IMG/VR virus record: IMGVR_UViG_3300028591_000139
Location: 35,510 to 99,509 of that record
Length of the DNA stretch: 64,000 bases
Source: a virus
Taxonomy: Duplodnaviria > Caudoviricetes
Strand: one strand, 5' to 3'
Notes under the pieces: model-generated
Told to the model about the DNA's origin: nothing
Databases searched by the model: none
What the model saw: only the letters and a program-made list of their open reading frames with translations
Translations under genes and position numbers: made by a program
Shown here: positions 10,910-50,383 of the stretch, piece by piece
Numbering within the stretch: the first letter of the stretch is position 1
How the letters are laid out: every line of letters begins with the position of its first letter

Positions 10910-11836
10910 ATGAAAAAAACTAAGTATAATTTTTGGACAAAAGAAGAAAATGTTATCAATGAGGCAAAAAAGTATAGTACGAAAAAAGATTTTTATACTA
11001 ACTCTGCTTCTGCTTACTATGCTGCGTTAAAATTGGGCATTTTAAATGATTTTACTTGGTTTACTAAAAAACAAGATTTAACTAAATTACAGGATTGTAT
11101 ATATGTTTATATATTTGAAAAGCAAAAATGTGTATATGTTGGAAGAACATTATTAGAAAGAGTTAAACAAAGAGATAACGAACATTTTTCAGAAAATAAA
11201 AACGAGCCCACATATAGATTTATTAAAGAAAATAAAATAGAAAGAGTACCATTAAAAATTATTGAAAGTGGCATAACTGTATGCGAAGGCATAGAAAGGG
11301 AAAAATATTGGGCTTCTTTTTATGAAAAAAATGGTTATAATTTAATAAATTCTGTAAAATGTGGAGGCGTTGGAGCGTTAGAATATAAAATTTGGAATAG
11401 TAAAAACGTTGAAGAAGAATCCAAAAGATACAAAACTCGCAGTGAGTTTGCTAAAGGCTCTCCATCCGCTTACAAATATGCATTAAAAGAAAAATTACTA
11501 CCAAAATTTGTATGGCTTTCAACAAGTATGAAAATGCCATTTGGCTATTGGATAATAAAAGAGAATGTGGTTAAAGAAGCGAAAAAATATACATCAAGAA
11601 CAGAGTTTTATAAAAAATGTTCTCCGGCCTATCGTTCAGCAATAAAGCATAAATGGATTGACGAAATGACTTGGCTTAAATGTGAGAGAATGGTCAAACG
11701 TGGCTTTTGGAGCTATGAAAATTTAAAAGAAGAATCAAAAAAATACAAAAATAAAAAGGAATTTTTAAAACACAATAAAAGCGCCTATATGATTGCTTAC
11801 AAAAAGGGCTTACTTAATACATTATATAATGAATGA
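10910..11836 (+). CDS. GIY-YIG homing endonuclease with helical repeats
   Basis: CIYVY..VYVGRT..R..H..E core plus KYxxRxEF..AY..A repeats. Confidence 0.8.
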   Translation: MKKTKYNFWTKEENVINEAKKYSTKKDFYTNSASAYYAALKLGILNDFTWFTKKQDLTKLQDCIYVYIFEKQKCVYVGRTLLERVKQRDNEHFSENKNEPTYRFIKENKIERVPLKIIESGITVCEGIEREKYWASFYEKNGYNLINSVKCGGVGALEYKIWNSKNVEEESKRYKTRSEFAKGSPSAYKYALKEKLLPKFVWLSTSMKMPFGYWIIKENVVKEAKKYTSRTEFYKKCSPAYRSAIKHKWIDEMTWLKCERMVKRGFWSYENLKEESKKYKNKKEFLKHNKSAYMIAYKKGLLNTLYNE

Positions 11837-13787
11837 AAAATTAGAAAGAATAAATAAAGCTTATAAAAGCCTAAAAGAATATTCTGGTGCCAATCCATAC
11901 ATTATTAACTTGAAAAATATGGTTTATGCCTATAAAACAAGAGGATTAAATGATTTAGAAATAGGCTATATTATCAAAAATATCAATTTTGAACCAAAAG
12001 AAATAAATAAAATCGTTAAAATCGCAGATTGGTACGGGGAAAAACTATATAATGAGTTGGAATTGGATTTTATACCAGAAAAATTGAAAATAACATGGTT
12101 TCTTGGAGAAACTGATTATGCGTACCATTTTTTCTTTATATATAGAAGGTCACAAGATAAAGCAATAGAAGCGTTTGCGCCAAAAAACGCAATATTAACA
12201 AACTTTTTAATAGAAGATTATAATAAGTTAGATATAGATTTTACAGATGTTGAGAAAAAAAGCGGCAGAAAAATAATGGAACACCAAAAAGAAGCCTGCA
12301 AGTTCCTAATCTCAAGAAAAAAATGTATTCTTGCCGATGAAATGGGTGGCGGGAAGACATACAGTGCTATTTTGGGGGCATACCTGGGTAATTTTGAACA
12401 TATTCTTATCATTTCCCCATCATCAGTTAAAAAAACGTGGGAAAACGAACTAAAATTACTCATAAACGATGAAGATATTACCATAGTACAAGGTTCTAAA
12501 TGGAAAGATGCAAAATATACTATTATAAATTATGATATATTAGATAATTTCTACAAAATACCGACACAAAAAATAAAAAAGAAAGAACTTAATGTTGATG
12601 ACGAAGGAAAAGTAATTACAGAATATAAAGAAAAAGAAATAGTATCGAGAAACCAAAAAATAATAAATGAAGCAATGTCCGAAAGTCAACTATTTCAAGC
12701 AAAATATGACTTAATTATCATAGACGAGGCTCATAAACTTTCAAATAGTACCTCCGGAAGATTTAAAATATTATCTGACCTCATCAAAAGAAGCAATCCA
12801 AAAGGAATATTTGAATTAACCGGTACAATGATAACAAATAATTCAAATAATTTATATAACTTGCTTAAAATTATTGATGTTCCCATTACAAAAGATTGGA
12901 AATATTATATGACAAGATACTGTGGGGCTAAAATCTTCTACAAGAAAAATGAAAGAAACGCTTATACTGCACTATTCTGCAAATCTGTTGGAAAAAAAGA
13001 ATGGATGGATTTAACATATGATGAAAAACAGGAGTTGAACGAAGTTCTTGAGAAAAAATGCAAGAAAATATGTATCCCAGGAGAAGACACTAACATGGAA
13101 GAGTTGCAAGAAATCATAAAACCTTACTATTTAAGACGATTAAAAGAAGATTTTGTTAAAATGGTAAAAAAAGATATAAGATGCTTGCACTACGAAATGA
13201 CAGAAGAAGAAAAAGAATCTTATAACGAAGTGTGGGAACAATATCTGGCACTACAAGAAGATAAAGAAAAAACAGAAAAAAATAAAAAACTTATAGAAAC
13301 ATCATTAATGAGACAGTGGCTCGCAAATAAAATGATACCAAAAACAATAGAATTAGTGAAAAAATCTATAAGTCTGGGACATAAAATTATTATATTTTGC
13401 GCATATGATAACGAAATAGATAAGTTTAGAGAAGAATTTGGCGATATTTGCGTATACCATAACGGAAAACAAACAGAAAAAAAGAAAAATGAAGCCGTCG
13501 AAAAATTTCAAAATGATGACTCAATAAAAGTGTTTATCGGAAATATAATTTCAGCAGGAGTGGGATTAACATTGATAGCTGCGGACATTATCGTGTTTAA
13601 TAATTTTAGTTTTGTCCCAAGCGATAATGTACAAGCTGAAGACAGATGCCATCGCATAGGGCAAACAAAGCCTTGCACAATTTATTATCAATCGTTCAAT
13701 GGAACGTATTATGATAAAATGTTGGAGATTGTTCACAACAAGGAAGAGGTTATAGATAAGATAATCATTACGGAAAAAGAAAAATAA
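11829..13787 (+). CDS. SNF2-family helicase
   Basis: ILADEMGGGKT, DEAH, LTGT, GVGLTL, QAEDRCHRIGQ; start probably MNEKL. Confidence 0.93.
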   Translation: MNEKLERINKAYKSLKEYSGANPYIINLKNMVYAYKTRGLNDLEIGYIIKNINFEPKEINKIVKIADWYGEKLYNELELDFIPEKLKITWFLGETDYAYHFFFIYRRSQDKAIEAFAPKNAILTNFLIEDYNKLDIDFTDVEKKSGRKIMEHQKEACKFLISRKKCILADEMGGGKTYSAILGAYLGNFEHILIISPSSVKKTWENELKLLINDEDITIVQGSKWKDAKYTIINYDILDNFYKIPTQKIKKKELNVDDEGKVITEYKEKEIVSRNQKIINEAMSESQLFQAKYDLIIIDEAHKLSNSTSGRFKILSDLIKRSNPKGIFELTGTMITNNSNNLYNLLKIIDVPITKDWKYYMTRYCGAKIFYKKNERNAYTALFCKSVGKKEWMDLTYDEKQELNEVLEKKCKKICIPGEDTNMEELQEIIKPYYLRRLKEDFVKMVKKDIRCLHYEMTEEEKESYNEVWEQYLALQEDKEKTEKNKKLIETSLMRQWLANKMIPKTIELVKKSISLGHKIIIFCAYDNEIDKFREEFGDICVYHNGKQTEKKKNEAVEKFQNDDSIKVFIGNIISAGVGLTLIAADIIVFNNFSFVPSDNVQAEDRCHRIGQTKPCTIYYQSFNGTYYDKMLEIVHNKEEVIDKIIITEKEK

Positions 13788-13789
13788 CA

Positions 13790-14749
13790 ATGCCAAAGAA
13801 ATTAACAACGGAAGAATTTATAAAAAGAGCAAAACTGCTTCATAATAATAAATATGACTATTCAAAATCTGAATATAATACAGCAAAAGAAAAAATTTGC
13901 ATAATATGTCCGGAGCACGGTGAATTCTGGCAAACTCCAACCGACCATTTAAGTGGAAGGGGATGTTATAAGTGTGGAATAGAAAGGACAAAAGAATCAC
14001 AAAAATTCACTACAGAACAGTTTATAGAAAAAGCTAAACAAACCCATGGTGACAAATATAATTATTCAAAAGTTAATTATGTTAACTCACAAACACCAGT
14101 AATTATTACATGTCCAAAACATGGAGATTTTATTATGCGTCCAAACGACCACATTCAAGGCCAAGGTTGCCCAAAGTGCAAGTTAATATTTCTAAGGAAT
14201 AAATTCTCTCTCACAACTGAACAATTTATTAAAAAAGCAAGAGAAATACATGGTAATAAATATGTTTATTCTAAAGTAAAATACGTGAATAATAGGACAA
14301 AAGTTTGTATTATATGCCCAAAACATGGTGAATTTTGGCAAACTCCGGACAAACATTTGCAAGGGTGTAATTGTCCCAAATGCAATAAAAGCAGATTAGA
14401 AGAAAAAGTTAGCCTTATTTTATCAAAAAATAACATTGACTTTGAAGAGCAAAAGCATTTTGAATGGCTTGGTAGACAAAGTTTAGATTTTTTTCTTCCA
14501 AAGTTTAGTATAGGAATTGAATGTCAAGGAGTAGAACACTTTAAACCTGTGGAAAGATTTAAAGGAAGCGGAGGCTTTGAAAATACCAATGAAAGGGATG
14601 TATTAAAATATAGGCTTTGCGGTAACAATAAAGTCAAATTACTTTATTATACAAATCTTAAAGAATATAACACATTTCTCAATGAATCTTTAATTAAAAA
14701 TGAAGATGATTTAATCAAAGTAATCACAGAAAATAATAAAAATATATAG
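13790..14749 (+). CDS. Homing endonuclease: CPxHG zinc-ribbon repeats plus Vsr/DUF559-like nuclease
   Basis: Three YDYSK..ICPxHGEFWQ..GCxxC repeats; SLDFFLP..GIECQGVEHF. Confidence 0.85.
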   Translation: MPKKLTTEEFIKRAKLLHNNKYDYSKSEYNTAKEKICIICPEHGEFWQTPTDHLSGRGCYKCGIERTKESQKFTTEQFIEKAKQTHGDKYNYSKVNYVNSQTPVIITCPKHGDFIMRPNDHIQGQGCPKCKLIFLRNKFSLTTEQFIKKAREIHGNKYVYSKVKYVNNRTKVCIICPKHGEFWQTPDKHLQGCNCPKCNKSRLEEKVSLILSKNNIDFEEQKHFEWLGRQSLDFFLPKFSIGIECQGVEHFKPVERFKGSGGFENTNERDVLKYRLCGNNKVKLLYYTNLKEYNTFLNESLIKNEDDLIKVITENNKNI

Positions 14750-15131: not shown

Positions 15132-15536
15132 ATGAATAGTGAGTCAAAAAACCTATCCCTCTGTTTTGTCAACCTTGTTGGAGAAGAAAACGATGGAAAT
15201 TACAGATATGAATTTATGTTCACAGACAACCCAGATGAAGTTTTCGGAGAGAATTGGGAGTATATGCCTGCGGGGATGGTTAATAATTTAATGCCATCGG
15301 AAGAATATATAACGGAAATACACGTTGTTAAAACAAAAATTAAACTAGACCTAATACAAAATAATAATTGTTTTTCAATGCAAGACGCTCTTGACGGCTG
15401 CGTTGGTATCGCATATGAGAATATTTCATTTTATGATGACTATCCTGAAGACGGAAGGTTAATTTTTATGTTTGGGGAGTCATTTGATGATATTGAAAGA
15501 AAGCTTGCAATGAAAAATATATTATTTGAAAAATAA
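15132..15536 (+). CDS. Hypothetical acidic protein
   Basis: ORF track; followed by hairpin agagcaa/ttgctct. Confidence 0.7.
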   Translation: MNSESKNLSLCFVNLVGEENDGNYRYEFMFTDNPDEVFGENWEYMPAGMVNNLMPSEEYITEIHVVKTKIKLDLIQNNNCFSMQDALDGCVGIAYENISFYDDYPEDGRLIFMFGESFDDIERKLAMKNILFEK

Positions 15537-15636
15537 AAAATAGAGCAATCATAATAGTGGTTGCTCTTTCTTTATGCCACGTTATTACGTGCGTACCAAG
15601 CATAGTACAGTTCATCAGTTCAAAATAGGACGTTAC

Positions 15637-15658
15637 TGCCAACAGATATATCGTTACT
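15637..15658 (+). repeat. Solo copy of the 22-bp TIR of the TnpB elements
   Basis: tgccaacagatatatcgttact matches the TIR at 47146-47167 at 20/22 positions. Confidence 0.7.
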
Positions 15659-15663
15659 TTTTT

Positions 15664-16050
15664 TTATTTTAACTCTCTTATTGTTATCATAAGTTGCTCC
15701 CTAATTGGAACAATCAAATTTCCACTTGGGTAAGTATATTCATCATTTTTTATCTCCCCAAATTCAATATCGAAATAACCAATATAATTGCCAGCCTCAT
15801 TAACATCACGTTTTCTCCAATCATAGCAGATAACGTACTCTTCTACGCAGCCGCCCGTTTCCTTTTTCTTAATATAAGCAGGAGCTTTTGCAATCTTTGT
15901 CACACCACTCTCCCTATTAATCATGGTAAAAGTAATGGAACAGTTTTGCAAAGCCTCGAAAGCCTTTCTATAGTCGTGCCTTCCGTCATTTATTAACTCA
16001 AGCCGTATGGACGGATTCAATGAGTTTTGATTCAAATACCACTCTTGCAT
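15664..16050 (-). CDS. BppU-like baseplate/structural protein
   Basis: YDW..DV..AGNYIGYFDIEF..TYPS pattern resembles the BppU N-terminal domain. Confidence 0.45.
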   Translation of the reverse strand: MQEWYLNQNSLNPSIRLELINDGRHDYRKAFEALQNCSITFTMINRESGVTKIAKAPAYIKKKETGGCVEEYVICYDWRKRDVNEAGNYIGYFDIEFGEIKNDEYTYPSGNLIVPIREQLMITIRELK

Positions 16051-16174
16051 TTATTTAAAGTTTTTTTAATAAATATTTTATTTTTTATAAATATTTTTGT
16101 ATATTTGCAAATGAATTGATGTTTTTTAAAAGTAAAAACTTAAAATTCTAACTAAATTTAAAAAAATTTTTAAT

Positions 16175-18634
16175 ATGGCAAAAGAAATTACAACAGAAAT
16201 GGTAAACACATTCCTTAGTGGGCACGACCCAATGGAACATATTGTTTCAATTGAATGTGATTATATGGATAGTATGGCAAATATTATCTATAATAATGAA
16301 AACGGAGAAAAAAGAGTTAAAAGAGAGCCATTTAAACCATTTATATGGGTCAAAAATAGCGCGTGCATAAGAATGTTTGGTGGCAATAGAAGCTTGTTAA
16401 TCAGAAAATTAAGGGAATATAATATAAACGTCAAAAAATTAACAGACAAAAGAGAAGACGGCACTAAAATAGAAAGACTTGAAAACGGATATAAATATCT
16501 GTTCTACGCCACTAAAAATATGCCATATTCAAGATTCCTAAACTTCTTTACAGAAGCAGGAACACCAATATATGATAAAAATGCGGCAACAGAAAGAGGA
16601 GGCGGCTCAAAAGAATTTATGGCAATTACACCAATTGAACAATTTATGATTCAAACTGGAAAAAGACTGTTCAAAGGATATGAAAACTATGACGATTTAA
16701 AGAGATTCTTGTTCGACCTTGAAACACAAGGGCTTAACCCAAGAATACACGCCATAGACCAAATTGGTATGAGAACCAATAAAGGTTTTGAGAAAATTAT
16801 TACAATAACAGGCGAAGGGGAAGAGAGAAATAAAAATGAATTAGAGGCAATTGACGAATTCCTAAAAACAATATATGAAGAAAAACCCGATATTATAGCA
16901 GGACATAACTCAGAAAACTTCGATTGGGACTTCATAATCATCAGATGCGAAGTGTTGGGCACAACACTACAAGAAATGTCATCAAAATACTTCAAACACC
17001 CAATATATAAAAAGAAAAAAAACGCAGTGCTAAAACTCGGAGGAGAAATGGAATATTATAAACCAACTATGGCTTGGGGCTTTAGCGTGTTAGACTCACT
17101 ACATGCAGTCAGAAGAGCACAAGCACTTGACTCCAATATGAAATCTGCGTCACTTAAATATACGACAAAATATCTCAACCTTAAAAAACCAAATCGAGTA
17201 TATGTTCCAGGAGGAATAATTACAAAAGTATGGAACGTCACAGAAAAAAAATATGCCTTTAGAAATACAGACGGAGATTGGTATGAAATAAAAGACGATA
17301 GAAAACTACTAGACGGCTATGAATTAACAAGTGGAAGATACATAGTAGAAAGATACTTGTTGGACGACCTTTGGGAAACTGATAAAGTAGAACTTACACT
17401 AAATGAGTCTAACTTCCTCGTGGCAAAATTACTCCCAACGTCATTTACAAGAGCGTGCACAATGGGAACAGCAGGAATTTGGAAATTAATTATGCTTGCT
17501 TGGAGCTATGAAAATAATCTTGCAGTACCGGCAACAAGCGAAAACGCTCGCTTTACAGGAGGCCTATCACGATTATTAAAAGTGGGATATGTCGATAGAA
17601 TCGTAAAATTAGACTACAACTCACTTTATCCATCAATAGACTTAACGTGGTGGGTTAGCACGGGATTAGACATAGATAATATTATGCTCCATCTTCTCGA
17701 ACATATATTAACAAACCGAGAAAAATATAAAAAAATAAAAGAAGAATACGGAGAAAAAGCAAATAAACTAAAAGATAAATTAAATTCAACCGATTTAACA
17801 GAAGAAGAAAAAACAAATATAAAAAACGAAATTGCACGCTGTAAATCAATCAAATCAGCGAATGATAAGAAACAACTACCTTTAAAGATTTTGGCCAATA
17901 GCTTTTTCGGGTCATACGGGTGTCCACAAGTGTTTCCGTTTGGCGATTTGGAAGCTGCTGAGAAAACAACTTGTATTGGAAGACAGAGTTTACGTTTAAT
18001 GATTTCTCATTTTTCGACATTAAGCGAAAAGTTTGGCATTAATAATTCTGACTATAATTACACTCCTGTTGTGGGCGACTCGTTCACAGGTGATACACCA
18101 TTATTTATAAAGTACGATGAAAACGGGTTAATTGATATAAAGCCAGTTGAGGAGTTAATTGGCGAAACGGAAGTTGATGCGTTGGGCCGTGAATATGATA
18201 CGTCCCAGAAGCCATTTAAAGTGCTCTGTAGAAGCGGTTGGATGCATCCTGAGTATATTTACCGTCACAAGACAGAAAAGCCGTTGTACGAACTTTCTGA
18301 TGGCAATATGAACGTTGTGGTAACAGAGGACCACAGTTTGTTTAATAACAGACAGGAAAAAATCAAGCCAAGCGAAATAAATGCCGAAACAAAATTGGAA
18401 TATTACAATGAAAAGCTTGACCACAGTTATACTGACCCAAGTATTAAGCAAATAATAACGATAGCCAAGATGGTGAAGAACGGCACGTTTGATAGAATAC
18501 CGATTAGCATTCTTAACTTAGACAAAAAACAAAGAATACAGGTGTTTTTAGATGTTCTTGGAGATGTGGACTACTCAAAAATTAGCAAAACTTGTGCAGC
18601 TGGAATATTATTTTTAAAAAAGCAAATTATTTAA
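16175..18634 (+). CDS. polB: Family B DNA polymerase, N-terminal part, fused to the N-half of a split intein
   Basis: ExoI FDLET, ExoII HNSENFD, ExoIII YLLDD, motif A DYNSLYPS, motif B KILANSFFG; motif C is cut after VVGD by intein sequence. Promoter TATATTTG at 16100-16107. Confidence 0.95.
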   Translation: MAKEITTEMVNTFLSGHDPMEHIVSIECDYMDSMANIIYNNENGEKRVKREPFKPFIWVKNSACIRMFGGNRSLLIRKLREYNINVKKLTDKREDGTKIERLENGYKYLFYATKNMPYSRFLNFFTEAGTPIYDKNAATERGGGSKEFMAITPIEQFMIQTGKRLFKGYENYDDLKRFLFDLETQGLNPRIHAIDQIGMRTNKGFEKIITITGEGEERNKNELEAIDEFLKTIYEEKPDIIAGHNSENFDWDFIIIRCEVLGTTLQEMSSKYFKHPIYKKKKNAVLKLGGEMEYYKPTMAWGFSVLDSLHAVRRAQALDSNMKSASLKYTTKYLNLKKPNRVYVPGGIITKVWNVTEKKYAFRNTDGDWYEIKDDRKLLDGYELTSGRYIVERYLLDDLWETDKVELTLNESNFLVAKLLPTSFTRACTMGTAGIWKLIMLAWSYENNLAVPATSENARFTGGLSRLLKVGYVDRIVKLDYNSLYPSIDLTWWVSTGLDIDNIMLHLLEHILTNREKYKKIKEEYGEKANKLKDKLNSTDLTEEEKTNIKNEIARCKSIKSANDKKQLPLKILANSFFGSYGCPQVFPFGDLEAAEKTTCIGRQSLRLMISHFSTLSEKFGINNSDYNYTPVVGDSFTGDTPLFIKYDENGLIDIKPVEELIGETEVDALGREYDTSQKPFKVLCRSGWMHPEYIYRHKTEKPLYELSDGNMNVVVTEDHSLFNNRQEKIKPSEINAETKLEYYNEKLDHSYTDPSIKQIITIAKMVKNGTFDRIPISILNLDKKQRIQVFLDVLGDVDYSKISKTCAAGILFLKKQII
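18080..18634 (+). other. Split intein N-fragment (184 aa)
   Basis: Block A SFTGDTPLFI directly after VGD; block B VVVTEDHSLF (TxxH); stop codon before any block F or G. Confidence 0.9.
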
Positions 18635-18681
18635 GTAATTTTTATTGGAGTATCAGATATTTATTCTAAAGGCGGTATAAT

Positions 18682-20397
18682 ATGGGAAGATTTAATGAAG
18701 AAAAATTTATAAAAGAATTTAATGAAATTCATAATAATGAATATGAATATTTAAGTTATGAAAATGGGCTGGTGAAATTTTTATGTAAAAAGCATAATGA
18801 AATAAATTATGACACGCCATCGCATTTAAGGGACCCAAAAAGGGGGTGTAAGATTTGCGGAAAAGAAAGACAATCACTTTTTAATAAAAATTCAAATAAA
18901 TTAGCGAAAGAAACTTTTATTGAAAAAGCCAAAAAAATACATGGCGATAAATATGATTATTCTAAAACAGTATATGTAAAAAATAGTATTAAGGTTATTG
19001 TAACATGCCCAACTCATGGGGATTTTACAATAACCCCTAATTCCCATTTAAATGGAGAGGGGTGTTATCGGTGCGGATTAGAGCATTCGCATGAAAAATT
19101 TAGAAAAACAAAAGAGCAATTCATTGAAGAAGCAAAAAAAATTCATGGGGATAAGTACGATTATTCAAAGGTAGAATATGTTAATACAAATCAAAAAGTA
19201 TGCATAATATGCCCAGAGCATGGAGAATTTTGGCAAGTTCCTTTTAAGCATCTAATGGGTCAAGGATGTCGAAAATGCGGCATAAAAAAACGTTCGGCGC
19301 AACAAATGCTCACAACAGAACAATTTATTGAAAAGGCGAGACAAGTTCACGGGGACAAATATGACTATTCCAAAGTTGTTTATAATGGATATGACAATGA
19401 AGTCATTATAACGTGCCCTAAGCATGGAGATTTTAAACAAATACCAGATTCTCATATTCATGGAAGTGGCTGTCAAAAATGCTCTAGTAGCATTTCTAAA
19501 TATGAAAGCGAAATATATGAATTTATATGTAATTTAATTGGTAAAGATAATGTAATACAAAGAGAAAGAAATATACTAAAAAATAAAGCAGAACTTGACA
19601 TTTTTATACCATCAAAAAATATAGCAATAGAATATAATGGCTGTAGATGGCACTCTGAACAATTTAATAAAGATAAGAACTACCATTTAAGTAAAACTCT
19701 TCAATGTAGAGAAAATGGTATAAAGCTAATACAAATATTTGAAGATGAATATATAGACAAAAAAGAAATAGTCTTATCTAAATTAAAACATTTATTGAAT
19801 ATAGATGACGGCGAAAAAATACAAGCTAGAAAATGTTTAATTTATGAAATTTCTTACTATGAAGCAAAAAAATTTTTAGAAAAAAATCATATACAAGGTA
19901 AATGTAAATCAACTATATATTTGGGGGCATATTACGAAAAAAACATAGTAGGAGTAATGGCGCTCACAAAACTAAATGATGATAACGAGTGGGAATTAAA
20001 TAGATTTGCCACCAAAATAAATACTATTAGCCAAGGCATAGGTAGTAAAATGTTCTCATTCTTTATTGAAAAATATAAACCAGAAACTGTAAAATCTTTT
20101 GCCGATAGAAGATGGACTATTAATGAAAATGAAAATCTATATACAAAATTAGGTTTCAGGTTAAAAAGCATTTTACAGCCAGATTACAAATATATTATAG
20201 ATGGCACATATAATAGAGTGCATAAATTTAATTTTAGAAAATCTATTTTATCAAAAAAATATAATTTACCAATGTCTTTAACAGAAAGAGAAATGTGTGA
20301 GAAAATAAAAGCATATAAAATATGGGACTGCGGCTTGCTAAAATATATTTGGAAAAAATCTAAAATCAAAATAATTGATAAAGAAATTATAATTTAG
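18682..20397 (+). CDS. Free-standing homing endonuclease between the polB halves
   Basis: CPxHG repeats, ELDIFIP..AIEYNG.RWH nuclease core, C-terminal GNAT-like region (WELNRFA..SFADRRW..IWDCG). Confidence 0.85.
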   Translation: MGRFNEEKFIKEFNEIHNNEYEYLSYENGLVKFLCKKHNEINYDTPSHLRDPKRGCKICGKERQSLFNKNSNKLAKETFIEKAKKIHGDKYDYSKTVYVKNSIKVIVTCPTHGDFTITPNSHLNGEGCYRCGLEHSHEKFRKTKEQFIEEAKKIHGDKYDYSKVEYVNTNQKVCIICPEHGEFWQVPFKHLMGQGCRKCGIKKRSAQQMLTTEQFIEKARQVHGDKYDYSKVVYNGYDNEVIITCPKHGDFKQIPDSHIHGSGCQKCSSSISKYESEIYEFICNLIGKDNVIQRERNILKNKAELDIFIPSKNIAIEYNGCRWHSEQFNKDKNYHLSKTLQCRENGIKLIQIFEDEYIDKKEIVLSKLKHLLNIDDGEKIQARKCLIYEISYYEAKKFLEKNHIQGKCKSTIYLGAYYEKNIVGVMALTKLNDDNEWELNRFATKINTISQGIGSKMFSFFIEKYKPETVKSFADRRWTINENENLYTKLGFRLKSILQPDYKYIIDGTYNRVHKFNFRKSILSKKYNLPMSLTEREMCEKIKAYKIWDCGLLKYIWKKSKIKIIDKEIII

Positions 20398-20458
20398 GTA
20401 TAGAATACCCATATCAAGTTTTTGAGAATAAAGAAGAACTTTTAAAAGAAATACTAAA

Positions 20459-22012
20459 ATGATTGAAACAAAAAACATAGGAAACACAAGTGATTACGTG
20501 TATGATATATCTTTGGACGGCACAGTTATTAACGCTTTGGGAATGAATGTAATGTCAAATACCGATGGTTTCAACTTCCAAATGCCAAAAAAATTCAGGT
20601 ATACTGATGAAAATCCATATGTTGGAAAGGGCCTTGGAAGAAATGTTGAAAAGGGAAAGACGTATACAAAAGTGGAAGCAGACGTTGCAGAATTTGAAGA
20701 CTTATATTTTAATTCGCCGTATAACGGAGGCATTAATAAAATGGGTTTGGGAATAGATGAGTATTGTGACGCTTGTATACAGTTCGCAAGAAAAAATTAC
20801 GCGGACCTTATGCCGGATGGTTCTACAAAAAAAGTTGGAAATACCATTAAATCAAGAAAGATGTCGGGTTATTTGGAGAAGTTTATTGATGATGGAATAA
20901 ATTTATTGCTTCACGGTAATGGTTCAAAATTTTTGGAAAATTATTATGATTATATTTCAAGGATTTACAATTATCAAATTCCGATAAAGGATATTGCTTC
21001 AAAGGGTAAGATTAAGAAGACTATTGATGAGTACAAGACTGACTGTAACACTTTAACGAAGGCAGGTAATAAGAAGTCTCGTCAGGCGTGGTATGAGTTG
21101 GTTATCAGGGAGAATTTAAATGTAAATGTGAGTGACACCATTTATTACATAAATACGGGAACGAAGAAGGGTCATTCTGACGTTAAGAAAGTTACGCATC
21201 AATTTATAAAGGATGAGAATGGCGATATTATTGAGTTGACCAACAAATTAAAGACCGAGTTATTTAAGAAAGAGTTGGAGAATTATGGCGTTGAGAATGT
21301 TAAGGGGTTATCTTCTGATAATAAGAAGGAGATAATAAAGAAATATGTTATTCGTGAGGAGGATGAGATTATTCTTAATTGTCAAATTGTCCCTGCTGAA
21401 ATAATGGAAGATGAGAAGGATATTTTATGCAGCGATATTGATGGTTTGGAATATAATTCCGAAAAATATATTGAGCAGTTTAATAACAGGATAAAGCCAT
21501 TATTGGTTTGTTTTTCTCCAAATATAAGAAATGAGATATTAATTTCAAATCCGGAGAATAGAAAATATTTTACCGAAGAGGAGGCAAAATTGGTTGCTGG
21601 TTATCCCAACAAAGAGTCTGACCAAGACACTTATGAAGCTTTAATGACTCCCGAGAAGAAGGAGATTGCTTATTGGTTAAAGATTAATGAAACACCGCCA
21701 TTTATTAAGGAGTGCAACATAGATTGGGATAATTTGGTTAAAGATTACATTAAGGAAAAGGAGGAAAATGATAATGAATTATTTAAGGTTGAAAATGAAA
21801 AATATTTGGAGGCTTTAAATAATTTAACTGATAAAGATGTTGAAGCGTTTGAAGAAGATGGTGTTTTACCTCAAACAATATTAGATGTTGTAACATTAGA
21901 TAGTGATATGCATTTTTATTTCAATAAAATACCTTCCGTAGTTCCATCAACTGGCGGCTTTGTATTTGATGACATATCTTATGACTATATTGATAAAAAT
22001 GGAGATGAATAA
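20459..22012 (+). CDS. polB: Split intein C-fragment (34 aa, 20459-20560) fused to the polymerase C-terminal part
   Basis: Block F YVYDISL, terminal Asn (MSN) and +1 Thr give TDGF; followed by ARKNYA and KGKIKK polymerase motifs. Confidence 0.92.
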   Translation: MIETKNIGNTSDYVYDISLDGTVINALGMNVMSNTDGFNFQMPKKFRYTDENPYVGKGLGRNVEKGKTYTKVEADVAEFEDLYFNSPYNGGINKMGLGIDEYCDACIQFARKNYADLMPDGSTKKVGNTIKSRKMSGYLEKFIDDGINLLLHGNGSKFLENYYDYISRIYNYQIPIKDIASKGKIKKTIDEYKTDCNTLTKAGNKKSRQAWYELVIRENLNVNVSDTIYYINTGTKKGHSDVKKVTHQFIKDENGDIIELTNKLKTELFKKELENYGVENVKGLSSDNKKEIIKKYVIREEDEIILNCQIVPAEIMEDEKDILCSDIDGLEYNSEKYIEQFNNRIKPLLVCFSPNIRNEILISNPENRKYFTEEEAKLVAGYPNKESDQDTYEALMTPEKKEIAYWLKINETPPFIKECNIDWDNLVKDYIKEKEENDNELFKVENEKYLEALNNLTDKDVEAFEEDGVLPQTILDVVTLDSDMHFYFNKIPSVVPSTGGFVFDDISYDYIDKNGDE

Positions 22013-22057
22013 TTAAAAAAAGGTTGAGATTTTTTTATCCCAACCTTTTAATTTATT

Positions 22058-25000
22058 TTAGACATTATTTTGTCTTGCATAGTTTCCATAATTAATATTG
22101 GAAGCACCAGTGCTGTCATCAATTTTATACTTATTATTAGGAGTTCCTGCTCCATTTGCTGTATATTCTCCGCAATTCCAAATGTTGCTCAGATATAAGC
22201 CATTAAATGTTGAGTCATCTGCTTGGCCTGTTATTTCAACTAATCTAAGGGCGTTTGTATCTGTTATTTCAGAATCATTTGTGCCGCTTATGATTAGTTC
22301 GCTGTCGCTCATTCCCGGTGTTGTATTACCGTGTGACAGTCTCACATCAACTTTCAATGCGTCATTTTCAATATATACGTGTGATGAAGTTGTATCGCTT
22401 CCATCGAGCATATTATCAACTTTGTCATCCAACGCTTTAACTGCGTTATCCAACAGTTGGTCAGCGTTATATAATGATGTTGCTGCGCTAATGACTGAAC
22501 CGGTACTTGGGTGGTATTCGCAAGTTCCAGAGCCAAATCCTATTCCATTTTCTAAGCAGTTAATCTCATTTGACAAATCGTCAATATCATCTGTAGCAGC
22601 GCTAAGTGAATCTCCAATAACAGACATTATATCATTTGTGTTCTTTATTTCTCTGTCGAGGATAATATCTGCATTATTAAATGACGTAGCGCTTGCAATA
22701 TAATTTGTGCCTGCGTTTGCCAAATATCTAAATTCAGTGCCATTATCATTCAATCCGCACTTAGGAACTGACATTCCAAGAACGTTATCTTGTGTGATAT
22801 TGAGTTCATTTTGTACGCACTGAGTATCACCGGATGATTCAGTTATTTTGCTTTCCAAGCTTGCTGTATATGAAGAGAGTTCTCTAACGGTTTGGTCAAG
22901 CAAATATGTAGCGTTATTGATATTAGTTGCGTTTGCAATATATGTGCTTCCATTAGGAGCGTGGTAAACAAATCCGGCTCCGCATTCGGGAATGCTCTCA
23001 TTTCCAAACACTGCTTTTTCTACACTTGTAAGTTCAGATTTAACGCACTCACTTGAAGCGGTTGCGGCACTTATTAATGCTCCTGATACATATAAGCCAT
23101 TGCTAACTATTTTAACGATATTGTCATCAAGATTAGTTAATACAATTCTTCCGCTTAATGTATCACTATATCCACTACCATTAGTGACTTTAGTTAATTC
23201 AATTGCGCTATCTTCTGAAGGATTATCTACAACCCAATCATTGAACAGTTCATTAACAGGAACATTCATTGTATGAGATACGCCATTTGAATCGTGGTAT
23301 GTGATAACCAATACTCTATTAATGCTATCGTATACTATGGTGTCAAGTAATGCGCCTGCGTTAAGTTGTATTTCATCTTGTGCTCCGTTAGATGTGATAA
23401 TACGTATCTTATTAGTGGCCGAGTCATATCCCAATCTTACTGATGCAAATATGCCGGCATTTTCTCCACTAATTTTGATGATATTATCATTGGAGTTGGC
23501 AACTTTAACATTGGCAGTAACCACATTTTCGGCAGATTTATTCAAATCTATTGTTGTGGTATCGTCGAACGTTAATGTGCTAGCGGTTAATGTTTCGCTT
23601 AATTCCTCATCTTTTGCAATTCTTGCTGCTGTTTCGGCTGAAATTAAGTTTGCGAGCTCAGTTTCTTTAGCGGTTGAGCGGGCGATTTCGCCGTCAATCT
23701 TAGTATTAAGAGTTGTTTCAGCATTGGTTGCGCGTGTGGCTTCATTGCTAATAGCTGTTTGCAGTGCTGTTTCAGCGCTTGAAGCGCGAGCGATTTCTCC
23801 GCTTATTCTATTATCCAAAGCCGTTTCGGCACTAGTGGCACGATTTTCCTCACTACCTATTGCTGTTTGCAGTGCTGACTCTGCGCTTGTTGCCCTTGAA
23901 GTCTCATTGGTTAAAGAAGTTTGCAGTGCGCTCTCTGCACTTGCTGCGCGGCTTGCTTCATTTGTGATAAGTGTATTCAAGTTACTATCTGCATTATCGC
24001 GTAGCACAGCTTCATTGCTTATTCTTTCTTGTAAGAGAGTTTCTGCGTCGGTTGCCCTTGTCACTTCAGCATTTAAGCTATTTGTAATAGCGCTTTCAGC
24101 TTCTTTTGCGCGAGTTATCTCTTCTGTTAAATCATCAGTTAAAGCAGATTCAACATTTTTAGCTCTATTTACTTCATTTTCTAAGTTTGAAACGACTGTA
24201 TTGATTGAAATTTGCAATTCGCTATCTTTTTGAGTTGAGCGAGAAACCTCATTATTGATTTTCGTATCAATGGCTGTTTCTGCATTTGTGGCACGTGCGC
24301 TTTCATTATCAATTGCGGTCTGTAGAGCTGTTTCTGCGCTTAATGCTCTGGTTCTTTCTGTATTAACAGATGTCGTCAAAGCTGCTTCTGCGTTAGTAGC
24401 ACGAGAAACTTCTGCTGTCAGTGCTGTTTCTAGGTCTAAGTCTTTATCAGCCGAACGGCTCACTTCTGCGTCTAAATCGTTTCTTAGAGTTGTTTCAACA
24501 CCGACGGCACGATTTATTTCAGTATCAAGCTTAGTATTGATAGTTGTTTCGGCATTAGTAGCACGTGTGGTTTCGCTATTAATAGCTGTTTGCAAAGCAG
24601 TTTCAGCACTTATTGCGCGAGTTTTCTCTGTTTGTATATTAGAGGCGTTTGATGTGGCTGATATTGCCAATTCTTCATCTTTAGCGGTAGAGCGTATGAT
24701 TTCTGCATCTAATTTATCTTCAATCCTTGTATCTTCTCCTGTGGCTCTACTAATCTCACTTGCCAAATCAGTTGAAAGGGTTCTCTCTGCATCAGTTGCT
24801 CTACTTACTTCGGCAGTTAATCTGCTGTCTAAAGAGCTTACGTTTGTTTCAAGAGTGCTTGTTCTGTTCTGCAATGCTGTTATATCTGTTGCATTTTTAG
24901 TAATGCCTGATGATGTAACATATAATGTTCCTCCATCATTTACCAATATATTATCATTATGGGTAGAGATAACAACGGCAGCTTTAAGTATGTCTTGTTC

Positions 25001-35172: not shown

Positions 35173-37140
35173 TCAGGTGCCAACAGGTATATTATTACCT
35201 ATGTTCATATATTCCATTTCACAGTTATAGAATTTAAATGATTTCATATATCCTATAAATGTTCCAGCGAAGTTTTCTTCCAATGGATATGTTCTTGTTG
35301 GGTCAAGCATATAATTTGGTAAGACTGTTTCTGCCAATCCTTGTGTTCCACCGCCCAACGATATGTTAAATGGCACTCCTTCTTGTTTTTCATATAAATC
35401 ATTAAGTTTATGGAAATTAAATTTGGGCAATGTTTTTGTTACGTATACCAATTTTCCATCAACATAGAAATATAGTTTTATTCCGGTGAATATTGATTTT
35501 ATTTTAACGTGCACAACGTGCCATTCACAATCTTTAATAACATTTGGGAATGAATATCCTTCAATGACTGAATATTTATGTTCATTTTTTGCCTCGCAAT
35601 CGAATATTAAATATCTATATCCAATTTCTCCGTTATCTGTTATTCTTAATGCAAATGCGTTATTATATATATCTTTATATAAATCAGTATATTCTGAATT
35701 TGCTTTATCTCTTAATTTATCAATATCATTTACGGTATATCCTGTTTTTGTTCTATTCATTAAGATAAATAAATTGCCTTTAAATTTATCTTTCTTGCCA
35801 TAGAGCATCATTTTAGTGCCTTCTTCCCAATTATTTATTGTGAAACCTGTTTTTGTTCTATCAAATAATATAAATTTATTATCGGTATAGAAATAATAAT
35901 CATTTGCTGATTTCAGCATAAAATCATTATCTGTTTTATATTCAAAATCGCTTATATTCAATTCTGCCTCAATATAGTCTGAATCATAGTCCAACCCATC
36001 AAAGCCGTCTATATATCCATCTCCAAATAATTCACAACCGGATGATGGTTCATCTTTATCTTCCGCCCTGACATATTTTTGTTTTACGCAGCCGCACGCT
36101 GTAAAGAAAGAAACTTGCTTTGTTTTTGTCTTTTTTTCTTCCAAATCGCAGCACCAACTATCCATTGTAGTATGTGTCAATGTTTCATCTATTGTTTTTG
36201 GTGTAATATCAAAGTCCAAATAATCATCCAATATGTTTTCTCCATCGCAGCTTACTGTTCCTGAGAAAAGTTCTTCTTCACTTGTTCTATAGTATGACTC
36301 ATCATAATAATTAAAGTTCGTATAGTCATCAATATCTAAAAATTCTTCAATATAATCAGGATTTGGATTATAGAAATTACCTATTATATAATCTTTTTTA
36401 TCTATGTGGGCATCTTCAATATAATCATCGTATGATAAGGTTGAACATGATTCTTTATCTTCTTCATCATATAGATAAATCCATTTATTTTCGGCCCTTG
36501 TTCCCATATAGAAGAATATTCCCTTATTATTTGGGTATTTATCATTTAATGTTTTTTCAGATTCCTTTTCAAAATCACATTTATTTAAGGTAAATTCCAA
36601 TTCCCACGTATCTAAATCGTCCATTTTATAAGGGAGAACAGAATATTTATTACATTCTGTCATAAAAAAGCCTTGATAAAATCCGCCATTGAATTTTATC
36701 ATATCATTTTCTATTTTTAATGGATATTCATATAATAAAGTAGTTCCGCTTACAGCATGGAGCTTTAATCTATTATCTCCTTCTTCTATATCATATTTTG
36801 AATTGGTATAATAATTAACAAAATCCTTATTTGATATTCTGTCCTTTCTATATTGTATTAAACCATTATCTATACCGGTATATCCAATATTATTAAGCGT
36901 ATACGTGGTTGTTATGGCGCTTTCCCATTGATACTTGTTTGAACTATAAATCCATGTATCTCCACTAAAGCAGTCTTTATCTGAAACATCTATATATGAT
37001 ACCAAACAATCATCATACATAAAGCTACTATTGAAATTATAGCTTCCATAAGCATCATTGTTTATGAAAAAATCCCAATAGTCATCTTTATTTACCCTTA
37101 ATTTGAAAATATGATAGTTATTTTCTTTTAAATTAGCCAC
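35173..37140 (-). CDS. Putative virion protein with a ConA/LamG-like region; last codons supplied by a TIR
   Basis: WHVVHV..LYFYVDGKLV..FIGYMKSFKFY; the terminal GNNIPVGT is encoded almost entirely by the TIR. Confidence 0.6.
   Translation of the reverse strand: MANLKENNYHIFKLRVNKDDYWDFFINNDAYGSYNFNSSFMYDDCLVSYIDVSDKDCFSGDTWIYSSNKYQWESAITTTYTLNNIGYTGIDNGLIQYRKDRISNKDFVNYYTNSKYDIEEGDNRLKLHAVSGTTLLYEYPLKIENDMIKFNGGFYQGFFMTECNKYSVLPYKMDDLDTWELEFTLNKCDFEKESEKTLNDKYPNNKGIFFYMGTRAENKWIYLYDEEDKESCSTLSYDDYIEDAHIDKKDYIIGNFYNPNPDYIEEFLDIDDYTNFNYYDESYYRTSEEELFSGTVSCDGENILDDYLDFDITPKTIDETLTHTTMDSWCCDLEEKKTKTKQVSFFTACGCVKQKYVRAEDKDEPSSGCELFGDGYIDGFDGLDYDSDYIEAELNISDFEYKTDNDFMLKSANDYYFYTDNKFILFDRTKTGFTINNWEEGTKMMLYGKKDKFKGNLFILMNRTKTGYTVNDIDKLRDKANSEYTDLYKDIYNNAFALRITDNGEIGYRYLIFDCEAKNEHKYSVIEGYSFPNVIKDCEWHVVHVKIKSIFTGIKLYFYVDGKLVYVTKTLPKFNFHKLNDLYEKQEGVPFNISLGGGTQGLAETVLPNYMLDPTRTYPLEENFAGTFIGYMKSFKFYNCEMEYMNIGNNIPVGT
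35178..35199 (+). repeat. Solo 22-bp TIR overlapping the 3' end of the 35173..37140 gene
   Basis: tgccaacaggtatattattacc, identical to 41172-41193. Confidence 0.85.
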
Positions 37141-47510: not shown

Positions 47511-48638
47511 ATGATTAAAGCATACAAATACAAAATAAAACCAAACAAACGCCAAGAGGAACTTCTATCAAAGTTCTTTGGGTGTTGCAGGTATATATAC
47601 AATTGGGGGCTTAATCGTAAAACATCAGCTTACAAAGAAAATGAAACGCATATTAACTATGTACAGCTTGCAAAAGAGCTTACCACCTTAAAGCAAACAG
47701 AAGATTGCAATTGGCTTAAAGAAGCACCTAATGAATCATTGCAGCAATCGCTAAGATGCCTTGACAATGCTTTCACTGCATTCTTCCGCAAGAAAGCAAA
47801 ATATCCAAGATTCAAGTCAAAGAAACATACAAAGGATTCGGCAAAGTTCATTAACTCCGTTCACTTTGATTTTGAAAATTGGAAAGTGAAACTTCCAAAA
47901 CTTGGATGGATTAAATTATGTGAGAATAGGACATTTGGCCAAAGCATTTGTAAGCAAGGTACTTGTACTGTCAGTAGAGACCATTGTGGAACTTATTGGT
48001 GCTCAATAACGGTAGATGACATGCAGCCAAAACCAGCGAAAACCAAGTTGGTTAAGGATAATGCGGTTGGAATCGACCTTGGCATTAAGGATTACGCAAT
48101 ACTCTCAGATGGAACTAAATACTCAAACCCAAAACACCTTGAAAAGACGCAAAGAAAACTTGCGTGGTTACAAAGGGATTTTGCAAGAACAAAGAAAGAT
48201 TCAAAGAATCACGAAAAGATGAGGATAAAGGTTGCGAAGTGCTATAGAAGCATCACCAACCAAAGGAATGACTTTTTGCATAAGCTATCCACTCATCTTG
48301 TAAGGAACTACGATGTGATTTGTCTTGAAGATTTGAATGTTAAGGGAATGGAGCAGAACCATCACCTTGCAAGAGCAATCCAAGGTGCAAGTTGGGGTGA
48401 GTTTGTTAGACAGTTGGAGTATAAGAGTGAATGGTACGGTAAGAATATACTGTTTATTGGTAGGTTTGAGCCAAGTAGCAAGTTATGCCACAAGTGCGGA
48501 TATATCAACCAAGAATTGCAGTTAAAAGACCGTGAATGGGTTTGTCCTGTTTGTGGTGAGCTCTTGGATAGGGATGTTAATGCTGCAATTAACATTAGAG
48601 AGATAGCCTTCGACAAGCAGAACCTTGTTGGAGTATAG
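47511..48638 (+). CDS. tnpB: RNA-guided endonuclease TnpB
   Basis: GIDLG / CLEDL / DRDVNAA, zinc finger CHKC..CPVC. Confidence 0.95.
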   Translation: MIKAYKYKIKPNKRQEELLSKFFGCCRYIYNWGLNRKTSAYKENETHINYVQLAKELTTLKQTEDCNWLKEAPNESLQQSLRCLDNAFTAFFRKKAKYPRFKSKKHTKDSAKFINSVHFDFENWKVKLPKLGWIKLCENRTFGQSICKQGTCTVSRDHCGTYWCSITVDDMQPKPAKTKLVKDNAVGIDLGIKDYAILSDGTKYSNPKHLEKTQRKLAWLQRDFARTKKDSKNHEKMRIKVAKCYRSITNQRNDFLHKLSTHLVRNYDVICLEDLNVKGMEQNHHLARAIQGASWGEFVRQLEYKSEWYGKNILFIGRFEPSSKLCHKCGYINQELQLKDREWVCPVCGELLDRDVNAAINIREIAFDKQNLVGV

Positions 48639-49012: not shown

Positions 49013-50383
49013 ATGAAATATGACAAAATAGTTGAAAGAGCGCGTAAAATTCATGGCGATAAATATACTTATCCGCCATTTGATGAAATTCCTGTTGGCA
49101 AAAAAATGAAAATAATATGCCCAATTCACGGTGAATTTGAACAAACAGCATTTGCTCATATGAAAGGCCAAGGTTGCCCAAAATGCGTTGGAGAAAAAAG
49201 AGGATATACTACCGAAGATTTCATCAAAGACGCAAAATTAAAATTTGGTGATAAATTTGATTATTCAAAAACAGAATATACCGGAAGAAGAAATAAAGTC
49301 CTTATCATGTGCAAGGATTTTATAACAGATGAAAACCCAAATGGAGAATTTTGGCAGTTACCATTTAATCATTTGAAATCAAAAGATGGTTTTCCGTTTA
49401 TGGGTGAAAGAGGTAGAAAATACGGGAAAATATCTGATGAAGAACAAATATTAAAAAAAACAAAAAAATTCATTGAAAAAGCAAAACAAATCCATGGCGA
49501 TAAGTACGATTATTCAAAAGCCGTATATAATGGATGTTTTCAAAAAATATGCATTGTTTGTCCAAAGCATGGCGAATTTTGGCAACTTCCTGGTAATCAT
49601 ATAAAAGGCTGCAACTGCCCAACATGTTCAAATAAAACGCCAATAACAAAGGATGAATTTATTAAAAAAGCAAATGAAATTCATAATTTTAAATTTGATT
49701 ATTCAAAAGTTGTTATTGGAAAATCAAATGATAAGGTATGTATAATATGCCCGGAACACGGTGAGTTTTGGCAAACAACATCAAATCATTTAAGAGGAAG
49801 AGGATGCATTAAATGCTCAAGAAACAAAAAACTAACAACAGAAGAATTCATAGAAAAATCAAAATCAATTCACGGAGATAAATATGACTACTCAAAAGTA
49901 GAATATGTAAATAATGCTACCAACGTAATCATAACATGTAAAAAACATGGTGATTTTAAACAACTTCCTTCGGTACATTTATATGGTGGCGGATGCCCAA
50001 TATGCAACGAAAGCCATATGGAAAATGAACTAAGTCTGTTATTCAATGACAATAATATAAGATATGAAAGACAAAAAACATTTGAAACAATCAAATATAA
50101 AAAGGAACTTCCATTTGACTTTTATTTGCCGGATTATAATGTTGTCATAGAATGCCAAGGAGAGCAACACTTTAAAAAACATCACTTTTTTAATGATGAA
50201 AATAGATTTGAAAAGGATAAAATAAAATATGAAGGCTGTTTAAATAACAATATTAAAATATTGTACTACACAAATTATAACAGCTATAAAAAATATTTTA
50301 ATGAAATCTATAATGAAAACAATACATTTAACAATAAAATTAAATTATTAAATGAAATCATAAAACAAAAAAATACCGAGTAA
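49013..50383 (+). CDS. Homing endonuclease (CPxHG repeats plus Vsr/DUF559-like nuclease)
   Basis: Five repeats; PFDFYLP..VIECQGEQHF. Confidence 0.85.
   Translation: MKYDKIVERARKIHGDKYTYPPFDEIPVGKKMKIICPIHGEFEQTAFAHMKGQGCPKCVGEKRGYTTEDFIKDAKLKFGDKFDYSKTEYTGRRNKVLIMCKDFITDENPNGEFWQLPFNHLKSKDGFPFMGERGRKYGKISDEEQILKKTKKFIEKAKQIHGDKYDYSKAVYNGCFQKICIVCPKHGEFWQLPGNHIKGCNCPTCSNKTPITKDEFIKKANEIHNFKFDYSKVVIGKSNDKVCIICPEHGEFWQTTSNHLRGRGCIKCSRNKKLTTEEFIEKSKSIHGDKYDYSKVEYVNNATNVIITCKKHGDFKQLPSVHLYGGGCPICNESHMENELSLLFNDNNIRYERQKTFETIKYKKELPFDFYLPDYNVVIECQGEQHFKKHHFFNDENRFEKDKIKYEGCLNNNIKILYYTNYNSYKKYFNEIYNENNTFNNKIKLLNEIIKQKNTE

Follow-up and report, generated by a model that had tools for sequence, protein, structure and literature searches.

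How does a phage make a working DNA polymerase when the gene for it is broken in two at a catalytic motif? The question is raised by a 64,000-nucleotide (nt) stretch of viral DNA (hereafter the window), positions 35,510 to 99,509 of the IMG/VR record IMGVR_UViG_3300028591_000139 (Duplodnaviria; Caudoviricetes), in which a polymerase of the PolB type is encoded by two genes. The first of these ends with the N-part of an intein (IntN), the second begins with the C-part (IntC), and a free-standing homing endonuclease gene lies between them. From the sequence, we consider it very likely that the polymerase halves are joined by active protein trans-splicing, because the catalytic residues do not vary among relatives and the split gene is the sole polymerase of a complete 349-kb relative. 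An earlier reading of the same DNA (the original prediction) held that an active polymerase requires trans-splicing, and this appears well supported, since in addition the junction would restore motif C exactly and no group I intron was found in the locus.

The original prediction described gene 1 as ending its polymerase part in VVGD and running on into an IntN with Ser1 and a TEDH motif, and gene 2 as opening with an IntC of 34 amino acids (aa) that ends in SN and precedes TDG. The listing of open reading frames (ORFs) and their translations matched the former to the residue, and the latter likewise agreed (Thr+1 codon at 20561). The N-extein has Pfam matches to DNA_pol_B, DNA_pol_B_exo1 and RNase_H_2 and also matches phrog_262. 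VVGD occupies residues 632-635 of gene 1 (context YTPVVGD), and the intein runs from Ser636 (codon 18080), with the opening SFTGDTPL, for a total of 184 aa; it contains YIYRHKT and VVVTEDHSLF, in which TEDH corresponds to intein residues 82-85. Intein N-parts are usually 100-120 aa long, and this one is far above that range. IntC ends in VYDISLDGTVINALGMNVMSN and is followed by TDGFNFQMP of the C-extein; its length is fixed at 34 aa because in-frame stops lie 12 codons 5' of the ATG and the interval offers no other start codon. The 571-aa endonuclease gene that had been placed between the halves was found there (Table 1), separated from gene 1 by 47 nt and from gene 2 by 61 nt. All three reading frames are intact, and this split gene is the only PolB gene found on the phage fragment. 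IntN, the endonuclease gene and IntC together span 2,481 bp (18080-20560) and make up a mobile cassette in the site known as pol-c. A consensus scan found no terminator-like sites between the three genes, and a promoter scan of the locus gave signals no better than those in shuffled sequence.

Table 1. Features of the split polymerase locus, in window coordinates
Feature	Position	Strand	Remarks
Gene 1, PolB N-half + intein N-part	16175-18634	+	819 aa (ORF listing, translation)
N-extein, PolB residues 1-635, end VVGD	16175..18079	+	exonuclease domain, motifs A and B, first Asp of motif C
Intein N-part, Hint N-lobe, residues 1-115	18080..18424	+	Ser1, NX motif R62-H63, block B T82-E-D-H85
Intein N-part tail, residues 116-184 + stop	18425..18634	+	basic, helical, conserved stump of second LAGLIDADG repeat
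Free-standing homing endonuclease gene	18682-20397	+	571 aa; zinc ribbons, Vsr-like core, GNAT-like C-terminal domain
Gene 2, intein C-part + PolB C-half	20459-22012	+	517 aa
Intein C-part	20459..20560	+	34 aa; block F VYDISLDG, block G ending SN; net charge -3
C-extein from Thr+1 (TDGFNF...)	20561..22012	+	483 aa + stop; contiguous with N-extein in intein-less relatives
Hairpin terminator	22018..22049	not assigned	between PolB C-half and convergent 1832-aa gene (consensus scan only)

Two scans of IMG/VR with the N-half and C-half as queries gave 46 loci for comparison with the window. An uninterrupted polymerase, with residue 635 in frame with the first residue of the C-extein, was found in 17 intein-less relatives (10 in the first sample). 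Five of their junctions were read out as VVGDTDGFNFQMP, IVGDTDGFN and close variants, with the pattern (V/L)(G/L)DTDG(F/V)N. Because the intein-less relatives read VGDTDGFNF across the insertion point, the intein boundaries are exact, and their uninterrupted VGDTDG bears out the expectation that splicing would restore motif C in this form. The window insertion, VVGD/TDG, lies between the Asp and the Thr of motif C. The pol-c allele is defined as an insertion at YGD/TDS in PolB, which is also the Nanoarchaeum split point (PMC549080); the original assignment to pol-c fits this definition, and empty alleles of the site are seen. Since the exteins are in frame in intein-less relatives, the same split recurs in others and the splice residues are invariant, the layout of the locus is not a product of chance.

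The intein itself has the features of a class 1 (Hint) element, namely Ser1 directly after the N-extein, a T-x-x-H block B, blocks F and G, and an Asn followed by Thr+1; taking it out leaves a conserved uninterrupted host protein, as in the 17 intein-less relatives. In an alignment of 65 relatives, the N-parts of which share 49-78% identity with the window's IntN, residues S1, D5, T6, P7, R62, H63, T82, E83, D84 and H85 are invariant. Among 103 relatives with a TDG match, IntC ends in SN (80), HN (13), KN (3) or RN (2), so that Asn is terminal in 98/103; the remaining five rows are RQ (2) or intein-less or mismatched (3). Most of these C-parts are 33-38 aa long. An R/K-H 'NX' motif 5' of block B is a signature of Ser1 oxyester inteins (PMC10189870; Pasch et al. 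2023), and the window combines S1 and T+1 with YIYRHKT, which holds the invariant R62-H63. The suggestion of a cysteine-independent intein stood as regards the Ser1/Thr+1 pair and the missing penultimate His, but IntN still has two non-catalytic cysteines, C50 (invariant) and C172.

The predicted fold agrees with this assignment. An AlphaFold2 model of the 184-aa IntN has a predicted local distance difference test score (pLDDT) of 91.3, and its top Foldseek matches are all inteins, including NeqN/NeqC, Mja TFIIB and Aes123 PolB1. VIA-align superimposes IntN residues 1-115 on many solved inteins (Z 9-11, root mean square deviation (rmsd) 2.2-3.2 Å), and the best match, PI-TkoII, extends over 178/184 residues (Z 11.2, rmsd 3.2 Å). 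Neq Pol and Mja TFIIB are also near the top of the fold matches. Sequence identity of IntN to its structural matches is just 16-22%, and searched alone against Pfam and NCBIfam it gave only weak, sub-threshold intein matches. IntC has homology to the C-terminal end of the contiguous pol-c inteins.

We propose that the three genes are probably co-transcribed and that PolN-IntN (819 aa) and IntC-PolC (517 aa) would be translated apart, the intein halves then associating into a class 1 Hint fold. Ser636 would make an N-O acyl shift and Thr+1 would attack the resulting ester. Asn34 of gene 2 would cyclise, and an O-N shift would follow to give a 1118-aa polymerase in which motif C reads VGDTDG. 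The endonuclease would be dispensable for splicing; its part would be to carry the complete cassette into polymerase alleles lacking it.

Several points weigh against this scheme. Both Hint halves are acidic (net charges -9 for IntN residues 1-115 and -3 for IntC), hence their mutual capture is not explained by charge complementarity of the DnaE type. The penultimate His is absent from IntC. Such an absence is common in active inteins, and a penultimate Ser is unremarkable, given that Npu DnaE likewise ends in ASN. The record that contains the window is about 29% complete, so it is possible that the phage has a second polymerase elsewhere. What we say on splicing, on the activity of the endonuclease and on its cleavage target is inferred throughout.

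The missing His and the lack of charge complementarity would also suit intein halves that no longer splice and instead act as a tight non-covalent dimerisation module holding the polymerase pieces together. Dassa et al. (2009; PMC2677866) document broken phage genes that are assembled without splicing. The split NrdA of phage Aeh1 and split polymerases that have no intein offer parallels. Against this, Ser1, T82, H85, H63 and the terminal Asn, which serve splicing chemistry only, are invariant or nearly so among N-parts that are 49-78% identical. Moreover, an unspliced intein of about 218 aa would sit in the active site, between the catalytic aspartates of motif C, where near-identical phages have an uninterrupted VGDTDG. 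We therefore regard loss of splicing as improbable.

The incompleteness of the record leaves room for a second explanation, that the split polymerase is decaying and that replication is carried out by another polymerase, either encoded in the missing 71% of the phage genome or supplied by the host. It is difficult to reconcile with the intact reading frames and with the strong conservation of the arrangement, which recurs across many samples in over 100 protein clusters. A complete relative of 348,671 bp with terminal repeats and a split allele (G001) has a single PolB match, and in this genome and a second complete relative (G002), each with a single PolB, no polymerase of the PolA or DnaE type was found. 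Decay is thus less credible still than non-covalent assembly. Joining at the RNA level, whether through a self-splicing intron that harbours the endonuclease gene or through trans-splicing of the transcripts, would make the intein-like motifs incidental. It has next to no likelihood even though group I introns also house Vsr-like endonucleases (PMC2677866), since a permissive Rfam scan of 15500-22500 found no intron-like RNA family, excision of the spacer RNA alone would leave a 218-aa insert, and the flanks make up a complete Hint domain by sequence and fold that is homologous to contiguous inteins at the same site.

A hidden Markov model (HMM) of the IntN tail matches residues ~225-283 of contiguous inteins, their second LAGLIDADG repeat, with 15-18 bits, compared with a maximum of 9.7 bits in 1000 shuffles. 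hhalign aligns the tail with contiguous inteins over 61 columns (probability 94%, E 1e-7). In VIA-align, the LAGLIDADG inteins PI-TkoII, PI-PfuI and Tli/Pho VMA cover 175-178 of the 184 IntN residues, whereas mini-inteins cover residues 1-115 only. The stump comprises the last ~58 aa of IntN and is conserved as DRIP..LN, FL and SKTC.AG..FLK; the tail has a net charge of +5 and an isoelectric point (pI) of 9.6. Pfam returned no LAGLIDADG match in IntN, the homology of the stump being seen via the family profile and hhalign. MAFFT placed IntN residues ~122-137 on LAGLIDADG helix 1, and hhalign aligns them to the helix before repeat 2; because of this contradiction we claim homology for repeat 2 only. 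When the split form is set beside the contiguous one, ~100 aa from repeat 1 are missing, as is the catalytic loop (G-D-G) of repeat 2, and for this reason the stump is not an endonuclease: the set of two helices, catalytic acidic residues and beta-saddles that marks a LAGLIDADG endonuclease domain is absent from IntN.

The closest contiguous relatives of the split lineage (P0266 and P0269) share the N-lobe and the stretch VYDISLDG...NALG with it and have two intact LAGLIDADG motifs. The split intein most likely descends from a contiguous LAGLIDADG intein at the same site, through deletion of the first endonuclease repeat and survival of the second as a stump that closes IntN, while a free-standing nuclease gene replaced the rest. 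It is possible that the stump retains a function. As a tentative idea, with the odds against it, the basic stump could have been co-opted either as an electrostatic capture or anti-aggregation module that aids trans-splicing, or as a DNA-binding partner that helps target the endonuclease to rival alleles. If such co-option took place, the split cassette and the contiguous LAGLIDADG intein would be competing selfish elements at one site in a natural phage population. A literature search for split inteins with a LAGLIDADG remnant gave nothing relevant in titles and abstracts, and the words 'remnant' and 'degenerate' are not used in the text of Dassa et al. (2009; PMC2677866).

The distribution of the intein points to a mobile element. 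The best 120 protein relatives of gene 1 are split in 120/120 cases, with lengths of 802-831 aa, a ..GD/S junction and the conserved tail. A search for longer proteins returned more than 100 polymerases of ~1460 aa with a contiguous intein of ~355 aa at the same site; these inteins match Pfam LAGLIDADG_3 and Intein_splicing, and the closest of the polymerases is 72% identical to gene 1. Among the 46 IMG/VR loci the site is empty, occupied by the contiguous ~355-aa LAGLIDADG intein, or occupied by the split intein, with 7 contiguous, 7 empty and 6 split alleles in the second sample. The nearest kin of the window have contiguous (L047) and empty (L048/L054) alleles. The split layout with an intervening endonuclease recurs in L001, L002, L004 and L025 and, in the second scan, in L049, L055, L059, L063 and L065.

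In a tree of 90 N-exteins the three states are interleaved, with 19 changes, at least 13 of which are forced by well-supported branches. Sister pairs at near-zero distance differ in state, as in P0113 (split) and P0243 (contiguous), P0089 and P0249, and L001 (split) and L005-L006 (empty). The DNA of L001 is ~93% identical to that of L005/L006 over more than 16 kb and differs by exactly the 2,143-bp cassette, beside which no co-conversion tracts were visible in this comparison. A tree built from intein N-lobe sequences has one branch (Shimodaira-Hasegawa-like approximate likelihood ratio test (SH-aLRT) 91) with every split intein on the same side of it, and median N-lobe identity is 75% between split inteins and 38% between split and contiguous ones. 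Taken together, the interleaved states and the single branch fit a split lineage that arose once and whose entire cassette then spread horizontally. It counts against this interpretation that the polymerase tree was made with FastTree on a subsample of rows and that the intein tree has 126 columns only.

Some relatives, though not the window, show a further peculiarity at the junction. In four split alleles from three metagenomes there is a single in-frame stop right after motif C (L059:6064-6078, L065:6064-6078, L003:3711-3725 and L004:11355-11369). The sequence is GGC TAG CTA GGT in L059 and L065 and GGC TGA ATA GGY in L003 and L004, and these stop variants have a 9-nt insert relative to the window's TDGFNF. 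The pattern of Gly codon, stop, one codon and Gly codon would fit either a short ribosomal hop restoring TDGF or programmed read-through. Genome-wide recoding of the stop codon is not supported in G001, the complete genome of L004, where this gene is the sole PolB, and no UGA-suppressor tRNA was found there. ARAGORN listed, at G001:C1:4253-4325 (L029), a tRNA whose two-base anticodon it did not assign ('tRNA-???'). Of 120 C-half clusters in the database, about 10 begin at a Met just 3' of this position, as if the same stop were present.

The endonuclease between the halves has four zinc-ribbon modules (Pfam DUF723/DUF4379) and a probable Vsr-like core. The core has a weak phmmer match to I-Bth0305I (3r3p; E 0.09, residues 308-362) and scores 20 bits against Pfam MTES_1575, under the 38-bit cut-off. 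Its C-terminal GNAT-like domain reaches 26.9 bits against Acetyltransf_7 (cut-off 27) and matches rimI with E 6e-4; we take a Q-G-I-G-S-K stretch in this domain, judged by eye, to resemble an acetyl-CoA loop. Because phrog_559 (E 1.6e-120) and phrog_3339 (E 2.4e-96), which are annotated as homing or HNH endonucleases, match this architecture from end to end, the protein belongs to an existing phage endonuclease family. The GNAT-like domain (window 19780-20394) is also present in the endonucleases of L001, L004 and L025, and absent from those of L049, L055, L059 and L065, which are versions of ~300 aa.

The gap between the intein halves is a hotspot for nuclease genes. In L002 a gap of 4.3 kb (L002:9439-13611) is filled by a tandem series of three to four ORFs from the family of the window's endonuclease, and in L003 nothing but a remnant of the nuclease C-terminus is left (BLASTP E 1e-4). 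Between the same split-intein halves in L064, where IntC ends in HN, lies an ORF (L064:5349-6087) that does not match the zinc-ribbon endonuclease and has a PD-(D/E)xK-like motif (IDAKG) by eye; it is a putative nuclease of another type.

Elsewhere in the window there are two more zinc-ribbon/Vsr-like endonuclease genes of the phrog_559 type, at 13790-14749 and 49013-50383. The former directly follows an SNF2-type helicase gene (11793-13787), whose start is overlapped by a GIY-YIG endonuclease ORF at 10910-11836 (Pfam E 1.5e-6), and the helicase gene is thus flanked by homing-endonuclease genes of two families. The latter adjoins a TnpB-like gene (47511-48638) with OrfB_IS605, Cas12f1-like TNB and HTH_OrfB_IS605 domains.

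The source of the window is a 99.5-kb linear IMG/VR record, estimated to be 29% complete. A tail-sheath gene is present in it and its relatives lie on contigs of 270-420 kb, which identifies the record as a fragment of a giant myophage. A crAss-like phage, which genome size and GC content had suggested, was ruled out by the tail-sheath gene and by relatives of up to 420 kb. Megablast of the locus region against 50,697 phage records gave no match, and a protein search of the phage database with the N-extein found, at best, polymerases that are only ~25% identical, from Salinibacter and Nostoc/Anabaena phages. The clade therefore either has no cultured members or was kept out of that collection.

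If the halves are spliced as proposed, many strains in a large uncultured clade of giant (~270-420 kb) myophages would need protein trans-splicing to make their replicative polymerase. At pol-c this clade has a polymorphism of three states, with a turnover faster than the divergence of the phages. The alleles would form a series of natural intermediates for the birth of a split intein from a LAGLIDADG intein, its own endonuclease gutted and a free-standing one substituted. For protein engineering, the locus would add a family of mesophilic Ser1/Thr+1 split inteins, of which hundreds of variants occur naturally and in which the C-part is short (33-38 aa), with the caveat that several such tools exist already and that the window's IntN is long and has two cysteines.

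How does the locus compare with known systems? Fractured genes, in which a split intein and a free-standing GIY-YIG or Vsr-like endonuclease gene separate the host halves, are described in the passages of Dassa et al. (2009; PMC2677866) used here, and the original prediction was right that those with Vsr-like homing endonuclease genes were known; the window has a layout of this type. Common to both are the order of N-half plus IntN, endonuclease ORF, and IntC plus C-half on one strand, the family of the endonuclease (zinc ribbon plus a probable Vsr-like core), and the break region in the intein. The degenerate-endonuclease form in L003 corresponds to step III of the model put forward there. 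PolB is not among the fractured hosts named in these passages, the full list holding 26 loci. The model starts from an intein without an endonuclease, whereas the window's IntN keeps a LAGLIDADG stump and contiguous LAGLIDADG alleles coexist with it. Unlike the systems in those passages, the window's endonuclease has an added GNAT-like C-terminal domain.

Among individual inteins, that of Nanoarchaeum equitans PolB (Neq Pol) shares the pol-c site (position III; PMC549080), the PolB host, the natural split and the cysteine-less chemistry (PMC10189870). The NeqN/NeqC structure is among the top fold matches of IntN, with an identity of only ~17-19% over the aligned part. Neq Pol differs in that its halves are on separate genes (NEQ068 and NEQ528), in its thermophilic, archaeal source, and in its IntN, the solved chains of which are 79-90 aa. 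The Pseudomonas jumbo phage MIJ3/PA5oct (PMC6892783) and PolB1 of Campylobacter phage CP21 (PMC12707363) are comparable cases. Both are large myophages in which two genes encode PolB, the split intein has Ser1 and an endonuclease ORF separates the halves, and there is weak local similarity near block B. In CP21, however, the site is another one (VVGD/S ... HN/SCY, with Ser+1; PMC12707363), and in MIJ3 IntC ends in HN/S, again with Ser+1 (PMC6892783). The IntN of both is ~115-120 aa without a LAGLIDADG stump, and the polymerases are distant (best N-extein match in the phage database 25% identical). The contiguous pol-c LAGLIDADG inteins, namely PI-TkoII, that of Mimivirus PolB and, within the clade, P0241, P0266, P0269 and L012, have the same site and the same Ser1/Asn/Thr+1 chemistry, and differ from the split form in being part of one polypeptide with two intact LAGLIDADG motifs.

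Natural PolB split inteins with Ser1 and Ser or Thr+1 are already known and in use, namely Neq Pol, Aes123 PolB1, CP21, LCGC14, GOM-OPS-1 and PolB16 OarG (PMC10189870, PMC12707363). As cysteine-less PolB split inteins are thus established engineered tools (PMC10189870, PMC12707363), the angle of novelty and possible biotechnological use in the original prediction was overstated. The overall arrangement, a split-intein PolB with an intervening endonuclease gene, is already known. What appears to be new lies in the detail: the LAGLIDADG stump in IntN, the position of the split lineage among contiguous LAGLIDADG alleles, and the three-state polymorphism in near-identical phages.

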